In this document: positions 3,592 through 52,323 of the stretch, piece by piece
How positions within the stretch are numbered: position 1 is the first letter of the stretch
Layout of the letters: each line of letters opens with the position of its first letter
Assembly (NCBI GenBank): GCA_964551595.1
Contig: CAZKCU010000002.1
Location: forward strand, 3,081-67,080
Source of the DNA: an uncultured Candidatus Saccharibacteria bacterium
GTDB lineage: Bacteria; Patescibacteriota; Minisyncoccia; Minisyncoccales; CAZKCU01
Reading direction: 5' to 3'
Length of the DNA: 64,000 nucleotides
The notes under the pieces: generated by a model
Seen by the model: only the letters and a program-made list of their open reading frames with translations
Databases searched by the model: none
What the model was told of the DNA's origin: nothing
Translations under genes and position numbers: made by a program

Positions 3592-3637
3592 TTTAAAGAA
3601 TTTATTATTCGTATAAATTCGTAATTCGTAGGAAGTT

Positions 3638-5819: not shown

Positions 5820-5908
5820 CCTACGAATTACGAATATCTACAAATCTACGAATAAAATGCATTTTTTAAAAAAATTCGTATATTCGTATTAATTAGTAAT
5901 TCGTAGGG
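5820..5908. repeat. AT-rich imperfect palindrome built from TACGAAT/ATTCGTA heptamers
   Basis: Left arm CCTACGAATTACGAATATCTACAAATCTACGAAT. Right arm ATTCGTATATTCGTATTAATTAGTAATTCGTAGG. Confidence 0.75.
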
Positions 5909-11654: not shown

Positions 11655-11660
11655 AGAAGG

Positions 11661-11829
11661 ACATCCCAAATTGGAGAGGGGTCGGGAGAACCCTTCGGTT
11701 CTCCCGTATAGGAAAATATTAAAAACAGAGGGTTTTTAAAGAGCGAGCCCGAACCGAGCACATAATACTTTATGTTCTTGGGCCAGCCGTAAGGCTGGAT
11801 GAGGGCGAGCGACTAACTTGGTATTACCA
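11661..11829 (+). repeat. family A structured element, copy 1 (rpsC|rplP gap)
   Basis: 5' module GGAGAGGGGTCGGGAGAACCCTTCGGTTCTCCCGTATAGGAAAATATTAAAAAC. GNRA hairpin CCAGCC-GTAA-GGCTGG at 11783-11798. 3' module GAGGGCGAGCGACTAACTTGGTATTACCA-ATG. Confidence 0.85.
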
Positions 11830-12240: not shown

Positions 12241-12260
12241 ATCATTAATTTTTGTGAAAA

Positions 12261-12360
12261 TAGGAACCTTTCGCTTCGCGAAAGAACCTTGATTTCATAA
12301 TTTTCGCTTCGTTTCCTTAATTGCGAAGCAATTACAGTAGAGCTAAGCGAGCGGTTCCTA
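12261..12360. repeat. palindromic element bounded by TAGGAACC/GGTTCCTA carrying the core box in reverse orientation
   Basis: TTTCGC-TTC-GCGAAA and TAATTGC-GAA-GCAATTA hairpins. The reverse complement of 12315-12360 matches the core box AACCnGTCGCT..CTGTAATTGCTTCGCAATTAAG seen in family A. Confidence 0.75.
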
Positions 12361-12367
12361 AATTTTT

Positions 12368-12544
12368 ATGAAAATAACAGAATTGAGTCAAAAGTCAAAA
12401 AATGAATTGCAGACTTTACTATCTGAAAAAAGAGAGAGATTGCGACAATTAAGATTTAACATATCTTCAGGCAAAGTTAAGAATGTCAGAGAAATTAGAA
12501 TAATAAAGAAAGATATCTCCAGAATATTAACAATATTAAAATAG
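12368..12544 (+). CDS. rpmC: 50S ribosomal protein L29 (58 aa; below ORF-track cutoff)
   Basis: Hand translation gives MKITELSQKSKNELQTLLSEKRERLRQLRFNISSGKVKNVREIRIIKKDISRILTILK. It sits in the expected slot between rplP and rpsQ. Confidence 0.9.
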   Translation: MKITELSQKSKNELQTLLSEKRERLRQLRFNISSGKVKNVREIRIIKKDISRILTILK

Positions 12545-12545
12545 A

Positions 12546-12682
12546 ACATCCCACATCGGAGAGGGGTCGGGAGAACCCTTCGGTTCTCCCGTATAGGAAA
12601 ATATTAAAAACCGAGGGTTTTTAAGAAGCGGTGTTAGTCGAGCGAAGCGAGACGTGCCGCGACCTAACTCGGTATTATCACT
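12546..12682 (+). repeat. family A structured element, copy 2 (short form; rpmC|rpsQ gap)
   Basis: Same 5' module as copy 1. A divergent middle section is followed by the 3' end CTAACTCGGTATTATCACT-ATG. Confidence 0.85.
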
Positions 12683-12916
12683 ATGGTAAAAAGAAAATTA
12701 CAAGGCACAATCATTTCAACTAAAATGAAAAAGACGGTAGTAGTTAAAACAGAGCGAATAAAAGAACACCCGAGATACAAAAAGAGATACAAAGTTCACA
12801 AAAAATATAAAGCCCATGATGAAAGCGAAAAGTGCAAAGTAGGAGATAAGGTTATTATTGAAGAATGTAGGCCAATATCAAAAGATAAGAGATGGAGAGT
12901 AATAAAGAAAGCTTGA
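12683..12916 (+). CDS. rpsQ: 30S ribosomal protein S17
   Basis: KLQGTIISTKMKKTVVVKTERIKEHPRYKK...HDE...GD.V.I.ECRPISK.K.W. Confidence 0.96.
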   Translation: MVKRKLQGTIISTKMKKTVVVKTERIKEHPRYKKRYKVHKKYKAHDESEKCKVGDKVIIEECRPISKDKRWRVIKKA

Positions 12917-13130
12917 ACCACATCGGAGAGGGGTCGGGAGAACCCTTCGGTTCTCCCGTATAGGAAAATATTAAAAACCGAGGGTTTTACAAACCAGTCG
13001 TCGCTCCGCGCCTCCTTGTAATTGCTTCGCAATTAAGAAAGAGCGAGCCCGAAGCGAGGCTGAGATTGTCGAAGCCGAGCGCCAGCCGTAAGGCTGGATG
13101 AGGGCGAGCGACTAACTTGGTATTACCACT
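12917..13130 (+). repeat. family A structured element, copy 3 (long form; rpsQ|rplN gap)
   Basis: Contains the 5' module, the core box (12992-13038), the CCAGCC-GTAA-GGCTGG hairpin (13082-13097) and the 3' module ending ...GGTATTACCACT-ATG. Confidence 0.9.
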
Positions 13131-13502: not shown

Positions 13503-13645
13503 CGCTCGGCAACAAGTTTTAAAGTACCGATAGTTCAAATCCCAGCGAGATTTGACTATCTACATTCTCGTCCCGTCGCTCCGACTTCGTCGGAGACCGT
13601 GTCGACGGGACTGCGAAAGTTACTTTAAAACTTGTTGCCTCGCTT
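13503..13645. repeat. family B palindromic element, copy 1
   Basis: About 20-bp outer stem GGCAACAAGTTTTAAAGTAC/GTTACTTTAAAACTTGTTGCC. Inner hairpins are GATAGTTCAAATC..GATTTGACTATC, GTCCCGTCG..CGACGGGAC and CTCCGAC-TTC-GTCGGAG. It appears near-identical by eye, with scattered substitutions, to 21777-21920. Confidence 0.85.
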
Positions 13646-13707
13646 AAAAATTATTTGTAATTCCGAGCAAAGCGAGGAATCAAGGTTCTGGCGAAGTCAG
13701 GTTCTTA

Positions 13708-21776: not shown

Positions 21777-21920
21777 CGCTCGGCAACGAAGTTTCAAAGT
21801 ACTGATAGTTCAAATCCCAGCGAGATTTGACTATCTACATTCTCGTCCCGTCGCTCCGACTTCGTCGGAGACCGTGCCGACGGGACTGCGAAAGTTACTT
21901 TAAAACTTATTGCCTCGCTT
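21777..21920. repeat. family B palindromic element, copy 2
   Basis: Near-identical by eye to 13503-13645, with the same inner hairpins and a slightly decayed outer stem. Confidence 0.85.
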
Positions 21921-21939
21921 TATTAATTTTTTAAACACC

Positions 21940-28034: not shown

Positions 28035-28069
28035 GCCTGTCTGTCGGTATCAAATACCGACAGACAGGC
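28035..28069. repeat. perfect 16-bp hairpin, family E copy 1 (post-infA)
   Basis: GCCTGTCTGTCGGTAT-CAA-ATACCGACAGACAGGC. A related copy lies at 46326-46348. Confidence 0.8.
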
Positions 28070-28093: not shown

Positions 28094-28207
28094 ATGAAGG
28101 TTCGCGCATCAATTAAAAAAATTTGTAAAAATTGTAAAATAGTTCGGCGAAAAGGCCGACTCTATGTTATCTGTAAAAATCCCAAACATAAACAACGCCA
28201 AGGATAG
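28094..28207 (+). CDS. rpmJ: 50S ribosomal protein L36 (37 aa; below ORF-track cutoff)
   Basis: Hand translation gives [37 protein letters not shown]. It sits in the expected slot between infA and rpsM. Confidence 0.93.
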
Positions 28208-28218
28208 TTTTTATAAAT

Positions 28219-28424
28219 AACCCATCTCGGAGAGGGGTCGGGGGAACCCTTCGGTTCCCCCGTGTAGGAAAATATTAAAAACAGAAGGTTTTACAAACCA
28301 GTCGTCGCTCCGCGCCTCCTTGTAATTGCTTCGCAATTAAGAAAGAGCGAGCCCGAAGCGAGGCGAAGCCGAGTGCTGGAGTAAAGCTCCAGAGAGGGCG
28401 AGCGACTAAATTTGAACTACCATT
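28219..28424 (+). repeat. family A structured element, copy 4 (rpmJ|rpsM gap)
   Basis: The 5' hairpin carries a compensatory change (GGGGGAACC-CTTC-GGTTCCCCC, 28240-28261). The distal hairpin is CTGGAG-TAAAG-CTCCAG (28376-28392). The 3' end is GAGGGCGAGCGACTAAATTTGAACTACCATT-ATG. Confidence 0.9.
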
Positions 28425-28814
28425 ATGCCGAGAATAGCTGGTGTAAACATACCAGAACAAAAACAAATAGAAATTGCCTTAACCTATATTTTTGGAATAG
28501 GACTGTCTTTGAGTAGAAAAATTTTAACTACAGCCGGTATTGAAAAGCAGAGACTGGCATCTGAGTTAACTCCAGAAGAAATAAACCTGCTTAAAGAAAT
28601 TATTGAAAAAAAATATAAAATTGAGGGGAATCTTAAAAGAGAGATAATGATGAATATTAGAAGATTAAAAAATATATCTTCTTTTCGAGGAATTCGTCAT
28701 ATTAAAGGGTTACCGGTAAGAGGCCAAAGAACCCGAACAAATACTCGGACTGTGCGAGGAAATGTCAGAAAAACAGTAGGATCTGGCAGAAAAGCAGCCC
28801 CAGCCCCGAAGTAA
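28425..28814 (+). CDS. rpsM: 30S ribosomal protein S13
   Basis: [22 protein letters not shown]. Confidence 0.97.
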
Positions 28815-28821
28815 TACCACT

Positions 28822-36093: not shown

Positions 36094-36101
36094 AAATAAA
36101 C

Positions 36102-36310
36102 AACCCAAATCGGAGAGGGGTCGGGAGAACCCTTCGGTTCTCCCGTGTAGGAAAAGATTAAAAACAGAGGGTTTTACAAACCAGTCGTCGCTCCGCGCCT
36201 CCTTGTAATTGCTTCGCAATTAAGAAAGAGCAAGCCCGAAGCGAGGCCAAAGACCGAGCGCTGGAGCGAAAGCTCCAGAGAGGGCGAGCGACTAACTTGG
36301 TATTACCACT
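36102..36310 (+). repeat. family A structured element, copy 5 (murA|mreB gap)
   Basis: Long form with the 5' module, the core box, the CTGGAGC-GAAA-GCTCCAG hairpin (36261-36278) and the 3' module ...GGTATTACCACT-ATG. Confidence 0.9.
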
Positions 36311-44847: not shown

Positions 44848-44876
44848 TTGATTTTTATTAAAAACTACGATATAAT
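44848..44876 (+). promoter_or_regulatory. sigma70-type promoter TTGATT-17nt-TATAAT for the tRNA cluster
   Basis: The -10 box ends 5 nt before the first tRNA nucleotide. Confidence 0.6.
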
Positions 44877-44881
44877 AACGC

Positions 44882-44952
44882 CGCGGGGTGGAGAAGTAGT
44901 ATCTTGCGAGGCCCATAACCTCGAGACGCTGGTGCAATTCCAGTCCCCGCAA
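44882..44952 (+). tRNA. initiator-like tRNA-Met (CAU) with non-canonical D/T loops
   Basis: C1-A72 mismatch (CGCGGGG...CCCCGCA-A), as in bacterial tRNA-fMet. The anticodon loop is CCCAUAA, the D-loop AGUAGUA has no GG, and the T-loop is UGCAAUU rather than UUCNANN. No CCA is encoded. Confidence 0.7.
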
Positions 44953-45198: not shown

Positions 45199-45259
45199 TT
45201 CTTCAAATTGAGTTCAAATTTTGACCATATTTTAGTAGTAGTTATCCACATATTTTTAC

Positions 45260-45288
45260 TTGAAATCTGTTCAAAATTAAGGTAAAAT
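45260..45288 (+). promoter_or_regulatory. promoter TTGAAA-17nt-TAAAAT placed 6 nt before the pheS ATG (leaderless-type layout)
   Basis: Hexamers at 45260-45265 and 45283-45288, with the ATG at 45295. Confidence 0.45.
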
Positions 45289-45294
45289 GAAACA

Positions 45295-46323
45295 ATGAAG
45301 ATGCTAAAAATTAACCTTAAATTACTCAAAAATCAAATCAAAAAAGCCATTGATTCGGCAAAGGATTTAAAAGAGTTGAATGATATTTTTAAAAGATATT
45401 TAGGGAAGAGGGGAGAGCTTACCCAGATTTTGCGTTCTTTAGAAAAGTTGCCAAAGGCAAAAAGGGTTAAAATTGGCAAAGAGGCAAATGAACTTAAAAA
45501 TTTTCTGAGAATTAAATGCGACCAAAAAGTACAAGAGATTAAAGAAAAAATTAAAAAAGAGACTGCTAAAATCGAATGGATTGATATAACTCGGCCGGGA
45601 AAAAAGCCAGTTCTTGGGCATTTACATCCTCTATCGCAAGTTAAAAGTAAAACCGAGGAAATTTTTCAATTAATGGGTTTTTCAGTGGTTGAAGGTCCGG
45701 AGATTGAAACTGAATGGTACAATTTCGACGCCCTAAATATTCCCAAAGACCATCCAGCTAGAGACCTTTGGGACACTTTTTATCTTAAAAACGGTCTGCT
45801 TTTAAGAACTCATACTTCACCAGTTCAAATTCGTTATATGAAAAAAAATAACCCTCCCTTACGTATTATTGTTCCTGGTCGAGTTTTCCGCCATGAAGCC
45901 ACTGACGCCAGCCACGAAATTAACTTTTATCAAATTGAGGGATTAATGGTTGATAAAAAAGTCACAGTAGCCAATTTTAAAGCAATTATCCAGGAATTTT
46001 TTCAGAAATTTTTTGAAAAACCGATTAAAATTCGCTTAAGACCAGGTTTCTTCCCTTTTACTGAACCTTCATTTGAAGTTGATATGACCTGCCTAAATTG
46101 TAAGGGAAAGGGTTGTTCTGCCTGCCAAAGAACCGGCTGGATGGAGATGATGGGAGCTGGGATGGTTCACCCTAATGTTTTTAAAGCAGCCGGGCTTAAC
46201 CCAAAAAACTGGCAGGGATTTGCCTTTGGAATAGGTTTAGATAGATTAGCTATGATGAAATACAAAATCAACGATATTAGATTGTTCTATTCTGGAGACC
46301 TCCGCTTTCTCCACCAATTTTAA
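45295..46323 (+). CDS. pheS: phenylalanyl-tRNA synthetase alpha subunit
   Basis: HPARD.WDTFY, RTHTSPVQIR, GFAFG.GLDRLAM. Confidence 0.96.
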   Translation: MKMLKINLKLLKNQIKKAIDSAKDLKELNDIFKRYLGKRGELTQILRSLEKLPKAKRVKIGKEANELKNFLRIKCDQKVQEIKEKIKKETAKIEWIDITRPGKKPVLGHLHPLSQVKSKTEEIFQLMGFSVVEGPEIETEWYNFDALNIPKDHPARDLWDTFYLKNGLLLRTHTSPVQIRYMKKNNPPLRIIVPGRVFRHEATDASHEINFYQIEGLMVDKKVTVANFKAIIQEFFQKFFEKPIKIRLRPGFFPFTEPSFEVDMTCLNCKGKGCSACQRTGWMEMMGAGMVHPNVFKAAGLNPKNWQGFAFGIGLDRLAMMKYKINDIRLFYSGDLRFLHQF

Positions 46324-46325
46324 GC

Positions 46326-46348
46326 CTGTCGGTATCAAATACCGACAG
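46326..46348. repeat. hairpin, family E copy 2 (post-pheS)
   Basis: CTGTCGGTAT-CAA-ATACCGACAG, the same core as 28035-28069. Confidence 0.75.
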
Positions 46349-46355
46349 ACAAAAT

Positions 46356-48407
46356 ATGATATTTTCATACGATTGGCTACAATCATTTTTTAAAAAAAGA
46401 TTACCTAAACCAGAAAAATTGGCTGAGCTTTTGACTATGCATTTTTTTGAAGTAGAAAGTCTAGAAAAAAAAGGTAAAGATTGGGTTTTCGATATCGATG
46501 TCTTGCCAAATAGGGCTTCTGATTGCTTTTCTCACTTAGGAATAGTAAGGGAAATAGCAGCCATCATAAACGCTAATTGTCGACATCCGATGTCCATTAT
46601 TGAAGAAGACCAGAAAATAAAAGCTAAAGACTTTGTTTCGGTCGAGGTCAAAGATAAACCAGCTTGTCCTCGATATACCGCCAGAGTGGTCACTGATGTT
46701 AAAGTTGGTTCTTCGCCAAAATGGGTAAAGGCGAGATTGAAAATTTGCGGTTTGCGGCCAATTAACAATATTGTTGATATAGCAAACTATGTAATGTTGG
46801 AAACTGGTCAACCTTTGCACGCCTTCGACCTTGATAAGGTCTCAGGCGCAAAAATCCCAAATCCCAAATTAAAAACAATAATTGTGAGGCGAGCCAAAAA
46901 AGGAGAAAAAATTTTGACCCTTGACGATGAAAAATATGATTTAGATGAGAATGTTTTAGTAATTGCTGATTCAGAAAGTCCTTTGTGCGTTGCTGGAATA
47001 AAGGGGGGCAAAAAAGCCGAAATTGATTCAAAAACTAAAAATATAATTATTGAAGCTGCTAATTTTAATCCTCAGCTTACTCGGAAAGCTTCTCGAAGAT
47101 TAAAATTAAAAACCGATGCCTCCTGGAGATTTGAAAATGGCATAGACCCTAATTTATGTGAGTTTGGTCAGAAAAGAGTTTGCAGTTTGATTCAGGAAAT
47201 TGCCGGTGGCAGGATAGCCCAGGGTTTAATTGATTTTTACCCCAAAAAAGTTTCCCCAAAAAGAATTAAATTGGATTTGGATTATGTTGAGAGATTATTG
47301 GGAGTAAAAATTCCCCAAAACGAAATAAAAAACATTTTACAAAGATTAGGTTTGAAAATTGAAAAGTGTAAATTGAAAATTCTAAATGTGGTTGTGCCCA
47401 CATTTAGGCGCGATATTTCAATTCCGGAAGATTTAATTGAGGAGATCGGCAGGATTTATGGATATCAAAAAATTCCTTCCATTTTCCCAATAGCAGCTTT
47501 AATTCCGCCAAAAAGAAATCTTGATATTTTTTGGGAAAATATGGCAAAAGATATTTTAAAGCAAGCTGGATTTACTGAAGTTTATAATTATTCTTTCATT
47601 GGTGAAAAGGAGGCAAAGATTTTTCGAGCCAAAAATCTAATTGAAGTAGAAAACCCGGTAAGTATAGAACAAAAATATCTGAGAGCGAGTTTGATTCCGA
47701 ATTTATTAAAAAATATCAGAAATAATATAAAACAGTTGCCAGAGATTAAGATTTTCGAATTAGGGAAAGTGTTTAAGAGAACTAAAGATTTAAAAGAAAA
47801 AAGGATGCTTGGAGGAGCAATTATCGGCGATGCCTTTTTTGAAGCAAAAGGAGTCATCGATTTGTTGCTCAATAAATTTGGGATTTCAAATATTTGGTAC
47901 GATTCCCATCAACCAACTCCAGAGGAAAGTAAATTATCAATTTGGCAGCTACAAAAATGTGCTGAAATTAAAGTCAACCATACGGAAATCGGATTTTTAG
48001 GAGAGATTTTGCCAAAAATTTTAGATGATTTTAAAATAACCAGCAAAGTAGTCCTTTTTGACCTAGATTTTGAGAAATTACAAAAATTAACCTCTGAAGA
48101 ACAGGAATATCAGCCAATTTCTTCTTATCCAGCAGCAGTCAGAGACATAGCTATCTTAGTTCCTCGAATGGTTAGAGTAGAGGAAGTTTTGAATATGATT
48201 GAGGTTACTGGCAGCTCTCTAATTAGAGATGTTGACCTTTTTGATATTTATGAAGGAGAGGAGTTGCCCGAAGGAAAAAAGAATTTAGCCTTCCATATAG
48301 TTTATCAGTCAGAGACGAGAACTTTATCTTCAAAAGAAATTAATAAAATCCACCAGAAAATAATTAAGACCTTGGAAGAAAATCCAGGGTGGGAAGTAAG
48401 AAAATAA
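46356..48407 (+). CDS. pheT: phenylalanyl-tRNA synthetase beta subunit (short form, no N-terminal tRNA-binding OB domain evident)
   Basis: MIFSYDWL...B3/4 HAFDLDK, B5 and anticodon-binding-like C-terminus. Confidence 0.93.
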   Translation: MIFSYDWLQSFFKKRLPKPEKLAELLTMHFFEVESLEKKGKDWVFDIDVLPNRASDCFSHLGIVREIAAIINANCRHPMSIIEEDQKIKAKDFVSVEVKDKPACPRYTARVVTDVKVGSSPKWVKARLKICGLRPINNIVDIANYVMLETGQPLHAFDLDKVSGAKIPNPKLKTIIVRRAKKGEKILTLDDEKYDLDENVLVIADSESPLCVAGIKGGKKAEIDSKTKNIIIEAANFNPQLTRKASRRLKLKTDASWRFENGIDPNLCEFGQKRVCSLIQEIAGGRIAQGLIDFYPKKVSPKRIKLDLDYVERLLGVKIPQNEIKNILQRLGLKIEKCKLKILNVVVPTFRRDISIPEDLIEEIGRIYGYQKIPSIFPIAALIPPKRNLDIFWENMAKDILKQAGFTEVYNYSFIGEKEAKIFRAKNLIEVENPVSIEQKYLRASLIPNLLKNIRNNIKQLPEIKIFELGKVFKRTKDLKEKRMLGGAIIGDAFFEAKGVIDLLLNKFGISNIWYDSHQPTPEESKLSIWQLQKCAEIKVNHTEIGFLGEILPKILDDFKITSKVVLFDLDFEKLQKLTSEEQEYQPISSYPAAVRDIAILVPRMVRVEEVLNMIEVTGSSLIRDVDLFDIYEGEELPEGKKNLAFHIVYQSETRTLSSKEINKIHQKIIKTLEENPGWEVRK

Positions 48408-51306: not shown

Positions 51307-51729
51307 ATGAAAAAAATTAAAGCAGTAATTAAGCTTCAAGCCCCAGCTGCAAAAGCAACACCAGCACCGCCAGTTGGTCCAACTTTAGCTCAGTATGGTT
51401 TAAATATTGCTGAGTTTTGCCAAAAATTTAATGAAGCAACAAAAAACCAAGAAGGTTTTACTATTCCGGTAGAAATTACAGTTTATGAAGACCGGACTTA
51501 TGATTTTAAATTAAAATCTCCACCAGCTTCTGAATTTTTAAAAAAAGCTGCCGGGATTGAGAAAGGCTCTGGCGAACCTAATAAAACAAAAGTCGGAAGG
51601 ATTACCAGAGAGCAATTGAAAAAAGTAGCTTTGCAAAAAATGGCCGATTTAAATACCGATAATATTGAAAAGGCAATAAAGATAATCGAAGCGACTGCCA
51701 AAAACATGGGAATTGAAATCAGCGACTAA
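51307..51729 (+). CDS. rplK: 50S ribosomal protein L11
   Basis: [28 protein letters not shown]. The start is trimmed to the ATG at 51307. Confidence 0.96.
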
Positions 51730-51744
51730 CTTAACATTATCACT

Positions 51745-52323
51745 ATGATTTTGTCTGATAGAGAAATTAAAAAATATTTAAAAACAGGTCAGATTAAAAT
51801 AACTCCAAAACCAAATTTAAAAGAGCAATTAGGCCCTTGTTCCTTAGATTTGCGATTAGGAAATGTTTTTAAAATATTTAAACGCACTAAATTCCCGTAC
51901 ATTGACCTTAAACAGGAACTACCTATTGATGAAATAATGGAGGAAATTAAAATTAAAAAGCCCGACTCTTTGATTATGCAGCCTGGAGACTTTATTTTGG
52001 CTGTAACTAAAGAAGAAATTATATTGCCTTCGGATTTGATGGCGCGACTTGATGGCAGGTCTTCTTTAGGAAGACTTGGAATAGTTGTTCATTCAACTGC
52101 TGCCAGATTTGATCCTGGTTGGAGAGGAAAAGCAGTAATGGAGCTTGGTAATTTGGGGACTCTTCCAATAGCTATTTATCCTGGGATGAGGGTTTGTGCT
52201 CTAACTTTTGAAACTCTCTCTAGCCCTTCTGAAGTTCCATATTTAAAACAGAAAGACCATAAATACGCAAAACAAAAATTTCCCTTAGCGAGTAAAATAA
52301 ACCAGGAACCTAAGAGTCGATGA
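51745..52323 (+). CDS. dcd: dCTP deaminase
   Basis: MILSDREI...PCSLDLRLG...LDGRSSLGRLGI.VH.TA...DPGW.G. Confidence 0.9.
   Translation: MILSDREIKKYLKTGQIKITPKPNLKEQLGPCSLDLRLGNVFKIFKRTKFPYIDLKQELPIDEIMEEIKIKKPDSLIMQPGDFILAVTKEEIILPSDLMARLDGRSSLGRLGIVVHSTAARFDPGWRGKAVMELGNLGTLPIAIYPGMRVCALTFETLSSPSEVPYLKQKDHKYAKQKFPLASKINQEPKSR

Follow-up and report, generated by a model that had tools for sequence, protein, structure and literature searches.

Family A, a conserved RNA with a defined fold, occurs in ultra-small bacteria of the CPR (Patescibacteria), in lineages of the Minisyncoccia/Paceibacteria (Parcubacteria) type. Support for its structure is strong, Rfam 15 has no entry for it, and copies stand at the starts of core genes for translation, chaperones, and cell division, as well as of tRNA and tmRNA genes. 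Its probable role is to set or serve the 5' end of the downstream RNA. No description of the family was found in the literature searched, where coverage was incomplete and an earlier description is possible; family A is apparently previously undescribed. The CPR/Patescibacteria constitute a large part of bacterial diversity, and their gene expression is almost unknown.

Copies, architecture, and covariation of family A

In the window, which is the whole stretch of DNA that was analyzed (64 kb), family A is present in full five times, each time on the + strand. The copies were delineated by a repeat finder and alignment. A scan with the covariance model R1 gave them scores of 117-146 bits and returned no sixth full copy. 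A degenerate pattern of the 5' hairpin has five matches in the window, all on the + strand, versus none in 100 shuffles. Each copy fills an intergenic gap, and the distance from the end of the copy to the ATG is 0-3 nt.

Copy 1, 11658..11829, + strand: rpsC-rplP junction; R1 145.7 bits
Copy 2, 12543..12682, + strand: rpmC-rpsQ junction, with a short type II middle; R1 117.1 bits
Copy 3, 12910..13130, + strand: rpsQ-rplN junction; R1 125.8 bits
Copy 4, 28214..28424, + strand: rpmJ-rpsM junction; R1 138.2 bits, E 1e-34
Copy 5, 36097..36310, + strand: murA-mreB junction; R1 135.5 bits

Copy 4 occupies the gap between the rpmJ stop codon (28205-28207) and the rpsM ATG (28425). Its surroundings are a low-GC ribosomal-protein region with infA (27786), rpmJ (28094), rpsM (28425), rpsK, rpsD, rpoA, and rplQ. 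The original prediction had the element run from 28219 to 28424. The 3' end is correct, but the 5' end lies slightly farther out, at about 28214.

Two further sites in the window carry only the tail of the element, and both overlap the stop codon of the upstream gene. They are probably remnants of lost family A copies.

28811..28821, + strand: isolated tail motif GUAAUACCACU that overlaps the stop codon of rpsM, in front of the rpsK ATG
51722..51744, + strand: tail-only motif GCGACUAACUUAACAUUAUCACU directly before the ATG of the gene at 51745; a weak R1 match of 12.1 bits

Family A is 125-220 nt long. Independent folds of 29 copies gave the same architecture, and the single-sequence folds of the window copies beat shuffles in stability, with z of -2.7 to -4.5. 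In copy 4, the parts of the element are arranged as follows.

28216..28228, + strand: S1, the 5' lead, consensus AACAUCCCAYAUC; 5' limit of conservation
28229..28239, + strand: S2, a purine strand, GGAGAGGGGUC, near-invariant by alignment column counts
28240..28261, + strand: P1 hairpin, GGGGGAACC-CUUC-GGUUCCCCC, site of an A-U to G-C change
28262..28272, + strand: S3, GUGUAGGAAAA, near-invariant by alignment column counts
28276..28293, + strand: P2 hairpin, slightly degenerate relative to the consensus UUARAAACC-GAG-GGUUUYUAA
28294..28343, + strand: genome-specific insertion common to copies 3-5, with the hairpin UAAUUGC-UUC-GCAAUUA
28345..28405, + strand: P3 domain, a three-way junction, in which 28345-28354 and 28396-28405 form the P3 stem
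28358-28374, + strand: P3a, a hairpin in the P3 domain
28376-28392, + strand: P3b, the distal hairpin in the P3 domain
28406..28424, + strand: tail, CUAAAUUUGAACUACCAUU (family consensus CUAACUUGGUAUUACCACU), with UACCA at 28418-28422 and a 2-nt spacer before the rpsM AUG at 28425

Positional information climbs only from about -16 relative to S2. The consensus arms of P1 in the family are GGGAGAACC and GGUUCUCCC. S3 takes the nearly invariant form GURUAGGAAAA and is followed by an optional inserted hairpin. P2 is expanded in some copies, and after it come S4 (AARGAGCG), a variable middle, S5 (GCGAC), and the single-stranded tail. The type I middle is a three-way junction with the hairpins P3a and P3b, and at the base of the P3 stem G-C pairs alternate with tandem G.A. 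The type II middle is one hairpin between GYGUUAG and CGUGCC, and a third form is minimal. Copies end with ...GUAUUACCA, usually followed by 2 nt before the A of AUG. The hairpins are all internal, and no terminal inverted repeats were found in family A. The 50-nt insertion of copies 3-5 contains GUCGCUC, which is perfectly complementary to GAGCGAC (28400-28406) in the 3' strand of P3. The minimum-free-energy fold of the insertion-bearing copies takes this alternative pairing, which could be a switch or an accident.

Selection on the RNA helices had originally been proposed from compensatory base changes among the window copies. P1 of copy 4 reads GGGGGAACC-CTTC-GGTTCCCCC at 28240-28261 and is unique among the five copies; the other four have GGGAGAACC-CTTC-GGTTCTCCC (11684, 12569, 12936, and 36123). 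The A-U to G-C double change is present in the sequence as it was described, and so are the distal hairpins P3b: CCAGCC-GTAA-GGCTGG in copies 1 and 3, CTGGAGC-GAAA-GCTCCAG in copy 5, and CTGGAG-TAAAG-CTCCAG in copy 4. The conserved capped helix at this place holds for these four copies, but not for copy 2, which the prediction left unmentioned. Copy 2 has no P3b, and its middle is shorter and unlike that of the other copies. Five window copies alone are too few for covariation statistics.

Relatives were collected with a pattern anchored on the strands on either side of P1, with P1 itself left free. In species-representative genomes, the pattern matched 31 stretches. Twenty-nine are real and belong to Patescibacteria MAGs labelled Nealsonbacteria, Paceibacteria, Minisyncoccia, or Parcubacteria. 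The remaining two, from a Desulfatiglandaceae bin (L003) and a Syntrophus bin (L011), are chance matches in other phyla. The metagenome scan gave at least 120 stretches, and the pattern scan of viral contigs gave no copies. Among the matches listed from genomes and metagenomes, about 130 copies remained after de-duplication. The rpsM contig of the window organism is also present in JGI 3300008516 and 3300028837, ENA ERZ23499165, and SRR7066492. R1, which was built on four copies of the same architecture with the structure assigned by hand, recovers at least 126 copies from 100 sources, which are Patescibacteria loci.

Covariation was scored for 42 pairs in 125 distinct copies from other genomes, with 500 shuffles and slid 3' partners as controls. 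Standard pairs fill 85.9% of the cells as opposed to 72.6% in shuffles, in an alignment that was fitted to R1 and so favors structure, and 0 of 500 shuffles reached the observed value. The slid 3' partners (37-52% of cells paired) and the 29 independent folds are still concordant. Changes on both sides are found in 38 of the 42 pairs, with 390 double-changed cells versus about 90 in shuffles. P1, P2, P3, P3a, and P3b all covary. In P1, 96.5% of the cells are paired, and pair 30/132, the one changed in copy 4, is AU 104 times, GC 9 times, and CG once. P2 has 95.5% of its cells paired, with AU (56), GC (32), and UA (8) at pair 223/327. P3b is paired in 96.5% of the cells and has 2-24 double changes at every pair. 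Substitutions in the two arms are correlated in this larger structural alignment, and the whole structure exceeds 500 of 500 shuffles and all slid controls, which bears out the proposed selection on helices. Read on the sense strand, the helices contain G.U or U.G 117 times and A.C or C.A 24 times. This excess shows that folding, and selection on it as RNA, concern the sense strand.

Comparison with known RNAs gave no relatives. At the gathering score, Rfam 15 has no match to family A in the whole window, Alpha_RBS included. At E<=10, there are only chance-level matches (gltS at 24.6 bits, rydB, and Ms_AS-8), and no Alpha_RBS match over 28190-28440. ARAGORN and Rfam tRNA matches fall only in flanking true tRNAs and none in the element, and no conserved helix adjoining ACCA was found. 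The likeness of P1 to 16S helix 45, which came from a loose pattern search, is superficial, and different parts of the hairpins align.

Several additional pairings were tried and rejected. Candidate long-range pairings were S1 with S2 (P0), S3 with CUAUG, S2 with S5, and the tail with the P2 loop. Since the partner strands are invariant, none of the four rises above shuffles. The palindrome UGGUAnUACCA in the tail is not a helix, since its loop would be 1 nt and its first half varies without compensation. The tail GUAUUACC (e.g. 28411-28424) is also the exact complement of GGUAAUAC, the universal sequence of the 16S 530 loop and the site of the 519R primer. Pairing with the 530 loop was given little weight: the middle position of the tail is free to vary, and the one linked 16S fragment, in L111, reads GGUAAGAC without a compensating change in the tail. 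This complementarity is probably a coincidence.

Placement at gene starts and the expression context of the hosts

The 129 unique copies include 98 before a co-oriented CDS, 12 before a tRNA, 12 at contig ends, and 7 without a co-oriented downstream gene. Two of the latter seven precede tmRNA genes, as confirmed by the Rfam tmRNA model. A co-oriented downstream gene (98 CDS, 12 tRNA, and 2 tmRNA) is consequently present for 112 of the 117 copies that are not cut by a contig end. The tRNAs are Glu, Tyr, Ala, and Lys. Of the 65 CDS cases that could be parsed, 49 have 2 nt between UACCA and the start codon, which is AUG in every case; before RNA genes, the spacer measures 1-3 nt. The copies before tRNA and tmRNA genes retain the whole structure and join at the same 2-nt spacing; they represent 14 of the 112 copies with an identified downstream gene (~12%).

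Family A precedes more than 25 different genes. These are housekeeping genes that recur across genomes. Among them are rplN, rpsM, rplT, rpmA, rpsQ, rpsR, rpsC, rpsK, rplK, nusA, nusG, groEL, dnaK, ssb, clpP, ftsA, mreB, mraZ, murG, glmS, rnpA, and atpE; the window adds rplP. Genes that are preceded in more than one genome include rplN, rpsM, rplT, rpmA, nusG, and nusA. Occupancy of a junction differs between genomes: L059 has copies where the window has none, and vice versa. Private insertions are common to the copies of one genome, as in window copies 3-5 and in the copies of the JAZDIT MAG. As far as can be read from sequence, private insertions within a genome and variable occupancy point to gene conversion or recent spread. 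The S10-spc cluster of L059 (1-8470) has six model matches, some of them tandem or partial, located at rplV-rpsC, at rpsH-rplF (two), before rplO, and at rplO-secY (two).

On the upstream side, a co-oriented gene lies directly before 68 of 106 scored copies, with no promoter between. In roughly half of the 68, the stop codon of this gene is ~4-30 nt from S2; the longer distances are inflated, since ORFs of less than 70 aa were ignored. A -10-like hexamer is present 13-24 nt upstream of S2 in about 25-30% of the copies and would start transcripts on S1. Full promoters are found upstream of family A in L025, L065, L073, L093, and L097. A fixed upstream promoter common to the family A copies was not found, and scans of the body and the tail gave no sigma-70-like promoter.

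Gene starts in these hosts have few of the usual ribosome-binding signals. Shine-Dalgarno cores are uncommon and at their peak reach 25 of the 779 gene starts in the window and related loci. None of the related loci contains a 16S 3' end with its anti-Shine-Dalgarno sequence. Canonical promoters put the start site at the A of ATG or at the tRNA +1, with a 6-nt gap, and the -10 consensus is enriched 6-8 nt upstream of ATG. Two promoters in the window are of this kind.

44849-44882: TTGATT-17-TATAAT-6 before G(+1) of the first tRNA in a three-tRNA cluster
45258-45297: TTGAAA-17-TAAAAT-6 before the ATG at 45295

Their spacing implies putative leaderless transcripts, one for a tRNA and one for an mRNA. 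Of 33 tRNAs that are followed within 80 nt by a co-oriented ORF, 12 have the ATG at -1 to +2 nt from their 3' end, and the loci with this abutment include L034, L046, L051, L071, L096, L110, L143, and L146. On this spacing, the abutment is a predicted tRNA-punctuation arrangement that would yield leaderless mRNAs. In the window, many operon-internal genes follow a short spacer that holds neither a Shine-Dalgarno sequence nor family A; internal initiation evidently works without the cassette. The overall picture indicates that expression in these hosts is likely built around leaderless RNAs, some of which would be made by processing.

Possible roles of family A

Before coding and non-coding genes the geometry is identical, which argues for a role at the RNA 5' end rather than in translation as such. 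The same exact junction occurs at AUG and at the 5' ends of tRNA and tmRNA, so definition of the 5' end would explain both. A device for translation alone would have no need of the tRNA junction, and a pure stabilizer or antiterminator would have no need of the junction anywhere. Our tentative proposal is that family A may be a removable punctuation or leader cassette, with a cut at its 3' edge that would free leaderless mRNAs and mature stable RNAs. The element would be transcribed on the sense strand, either between cistrons as a spacer or at the front of a primary transcript as its 5' leader. The invariant single-stranded tail (...GUAUUACCA + 2 nt) would join the body to the first nucleotide of the downstream RNA. 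In mRNAs this nucleotide would be the A of AUG, and in tRNAs and tmRNA it would be +1. An endonucleolytic cut at or beside the 3' boundary would then give the RNA behind it a mature 5' end. Where translation is geared to leaderless mRNAs, this cut would make the downstream cistron translatable alone, and the folded body would stay behind as the 3' structure of the upstream fragment. RNase P cuts exactly in front of tRNA and tmRNA. We infer from the sequences that cleavage may also occur at mRNA junctions, where the candidate cutters would be RNase P, another nuclease that recognizes the body or the tail, or self-cleavage.

The family, fold, strand, exact placement, and leaderless-type signs of the hosts are established, and they are consistent with punctuation. 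Since the tail is not a promoter, cleavage at the boundary would be the simplest reading. There are also observations against it. Family A has no tRNA-like features, so there is no support for RNase P or RNase Z recognizing it as a tRNA mimic. It has no match to the curated covariance models (Rfam) of known self-cleaving ribozymes. No covarying partner was found for the tail, and no candidate long-range pairing exceeds shuffles. The operon-internal genes that are expressed without the cassette also count against it. With a -10-like box in 25-30% of the copies, a plain 5' leader fits equally well as punctuation.

Mitochondrial tRNA punctuation and the 't-elements' of plant mitochondria likewise place a folded RNA against the first nucleotide of a leaderless mRNA. 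The hosts of family A appear to use real tRNAs in the same manner, as seen in the 12 of 33 tRNAs described above. The t-element trait that family A shares is a structure that abuts the mature 5' end (UACCA + 2 nt, followed by AUG, tRNA +1, or tmRNA +1). Unlike t-elements, family A shows no likeness to tRNA in ARAGORN or Rfam searches and has no helix adjoining ACCA; it is bacterial, it lies upstream of tRNAs as well as mRNAs, and its cleavage is only putative. Self-cleaving ribozyme insulators (hammerhead, HDV-like, twister, and hatchet) have a similar size, conserved junction nucleotides, and variable peripheral stems, and a cut by such an insulator would free the downstream RNA from its upstream context. 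In contrast, family A matches no ribozyme in Rfam, and we know of no ribozyme class that cuts its own 3' edge without needing downstream sequence. It is possible, if doubtful, that family A is a bacterial punctuation RNA other than tRNA that makes leaderless mRNAs and mature tRNA and tmRNA ends as a new 3'-edge-cutting ribozyme or nuclease handle.

A cut is not needed if the body recruits or parks ribosomes and shields the 19-nt tail, such that family A is a structured, Shine-Dalgarno-free element for translation initiation or insulation and the AUG is used uncut. The fixed short spacer to AUG and the restriction to AUG starts are in line with this role. The hosts lack Shine-Dalgarno sequences, the invariant S2, S3, and P2 loop carry GGAG, AGGA, and GAGG motifs, and the element precedes housekeeping genes with high expression. 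The E. coli rpsA leader and the dicistrovirus IGR IRES are precedents for structured initiation regions, and like family A they have a 90-200 nt fold that ends at the start codon and GGA-type motifs. However, family A also precedes tRNA and tmRNA genes, and in these 14 of 112 copies, where translation is irrelevant, the structure and the 2-nt junction are kept. We consider the initiation element unlikely.

A lower probability is given to a generic 5' leader of highly expressed units, which would stabilize the RNA against 5'-end-dependent decay or act as an antitermination-type elongation RNA, with the junction being unimportant. Transcripts that start on S1 from the -10-like hexamers would have the hairpins near the 5' end, the full promoters listed above provide examples of this arrangement, and stable RNAs are among the targets besides mRNAs. 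However, such a leader leaves unexplained the exact 2-nt junction that is conserved at AUG and at tRNA +1. A structured leader of 150 nt would also be odd with leaderless mRNAs unless it is removed or gives ribosome entry, and most copies (68 of 106) are directly behind a co-oriented gene without a promoter between.

A global cis-regulatory sensor, riboswitch-like or protein-binding, that tunes the translation apparatus to a growth signal is improbable. Invariant junction strands with variable peripheral stems are typical of aptamers, the gene set (ribosomal proteins, tRNAs, tmRNA, and Nus factors) resembles a growth-rate or stringent regulon, and the insert in copies 3-5 permits an alternative fold. 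However, no expression platform was found: the copies contain no terminator-like site, and a start-sequestering pairing of S3 with CUAUG is not above shuffles. No riboswitch in Rfam matches; c-di-AMP comes closest with 9.8 bits, where the threshold is 38.

Equally improbable is a selfish mobile intergenic repeat of the MITE, REP, or Correia kind that spreads in genomes and is merely tolerated. REP/BIME, ERIC, BOX, and Correia elements are, like family A, multi-copy, intergenic, co-transcribed, folded, and homogenized within a genome. Family A shares with MITE/REP elements the homogeneity within a genome, as in the private insertions of window copies 3-5 and of the JAZDIT MAG, and the variable site occupancy, as between L059 and the window. 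Assemblies also break frequently within the element. In contrast to REP-type repeats, family A is strictly sense, is fused to gene starts, has covariation in multiple helices, and has no terminal inverted repeats. Its core is near-invariant, its helices covary across many MAGs, its orthologous positions recur, and it has no copy in viral contigs. Mobility or gene conversion is in any case compatible with a host function.

Least credible, and rejected, are a promoter at the DNA level in the tail, where the junction has a pyrimidine then a purine as at transcription start sites but the sigma-70 promoter scan of tail and body in the copies is empty for the tails on the + strand, there is no -35 element, and the column equivalent to -11, where A is needed, is G in 102 of 125 copies, and the S4-responsive alpha-operon leader that was originally hinted at for the rpmJ-rpsM site, with which copy 4 shares the place upstream of rpsM and a structured RNA, as opposed to the absence of any Alpha_RBS match or similarity in sequence or structure to this S4-repressed E. 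coli leader. The occurrence of the element before more than 25 other, unrelated genes and before stable RNA genes (tRNA and tmRNA) argues that it is not a regulator specific to one ribosomal protein.

If definition of the 5' end by family A is true, it would explain the expression of operon-internal genes in genomes that are poor in Shine-Dalgarno sequences and adapted to leaderless RNAs, and it could add a new processing or ribozyme principle. Family A would be categorically new as a self-cleaving or nuclease-guiding cassette; otherwise, it would be kin to structured cis-acting leader or punctuation elements. Even as a stabilizer or a ribosome-entry element, it would be a compact, portable expression module and a precise handle for mining metatranscriptomes.

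Other motifs in the window and related loci

The window contains a second structured repeat that is unrelated to family A. Its two copies, at 13514-13656 (after rplN) and 21789-21931 (before the gene at 21910), are ~143 nt in length, are 94% identical, and have a long closing stem. The motif ATTCGTAATTCGTAGG occurs five times versus ~0 expected, at 3617, 5892, and 13719 on the + strand and at 5820 and 18493 on the - strand. The + strand copies are just upstream of fusA, tuf, and rplX, and the motif may be an operator or another leader motif.

In relatives, 16S rRNA genes are interrupted (L111 2897-5625 and L099 435-1268), and one of the interruptions gives a group II intron D1-D4 match. Neither locus includes the 3' part of the 16S gene.

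An identical perfect hairpin, CTGTCGGTATCAAATACCGACAG, is present at 28041-28063 in the infA-rpmJ gap and at 46326-46348 just before the gene at 46356. The rplP-rpmC gap (12241-12368) contains another folded spacer, with a UAAUUGC...GCAAUUA hairpin similar to that of the insertion in family A copies 3-5.
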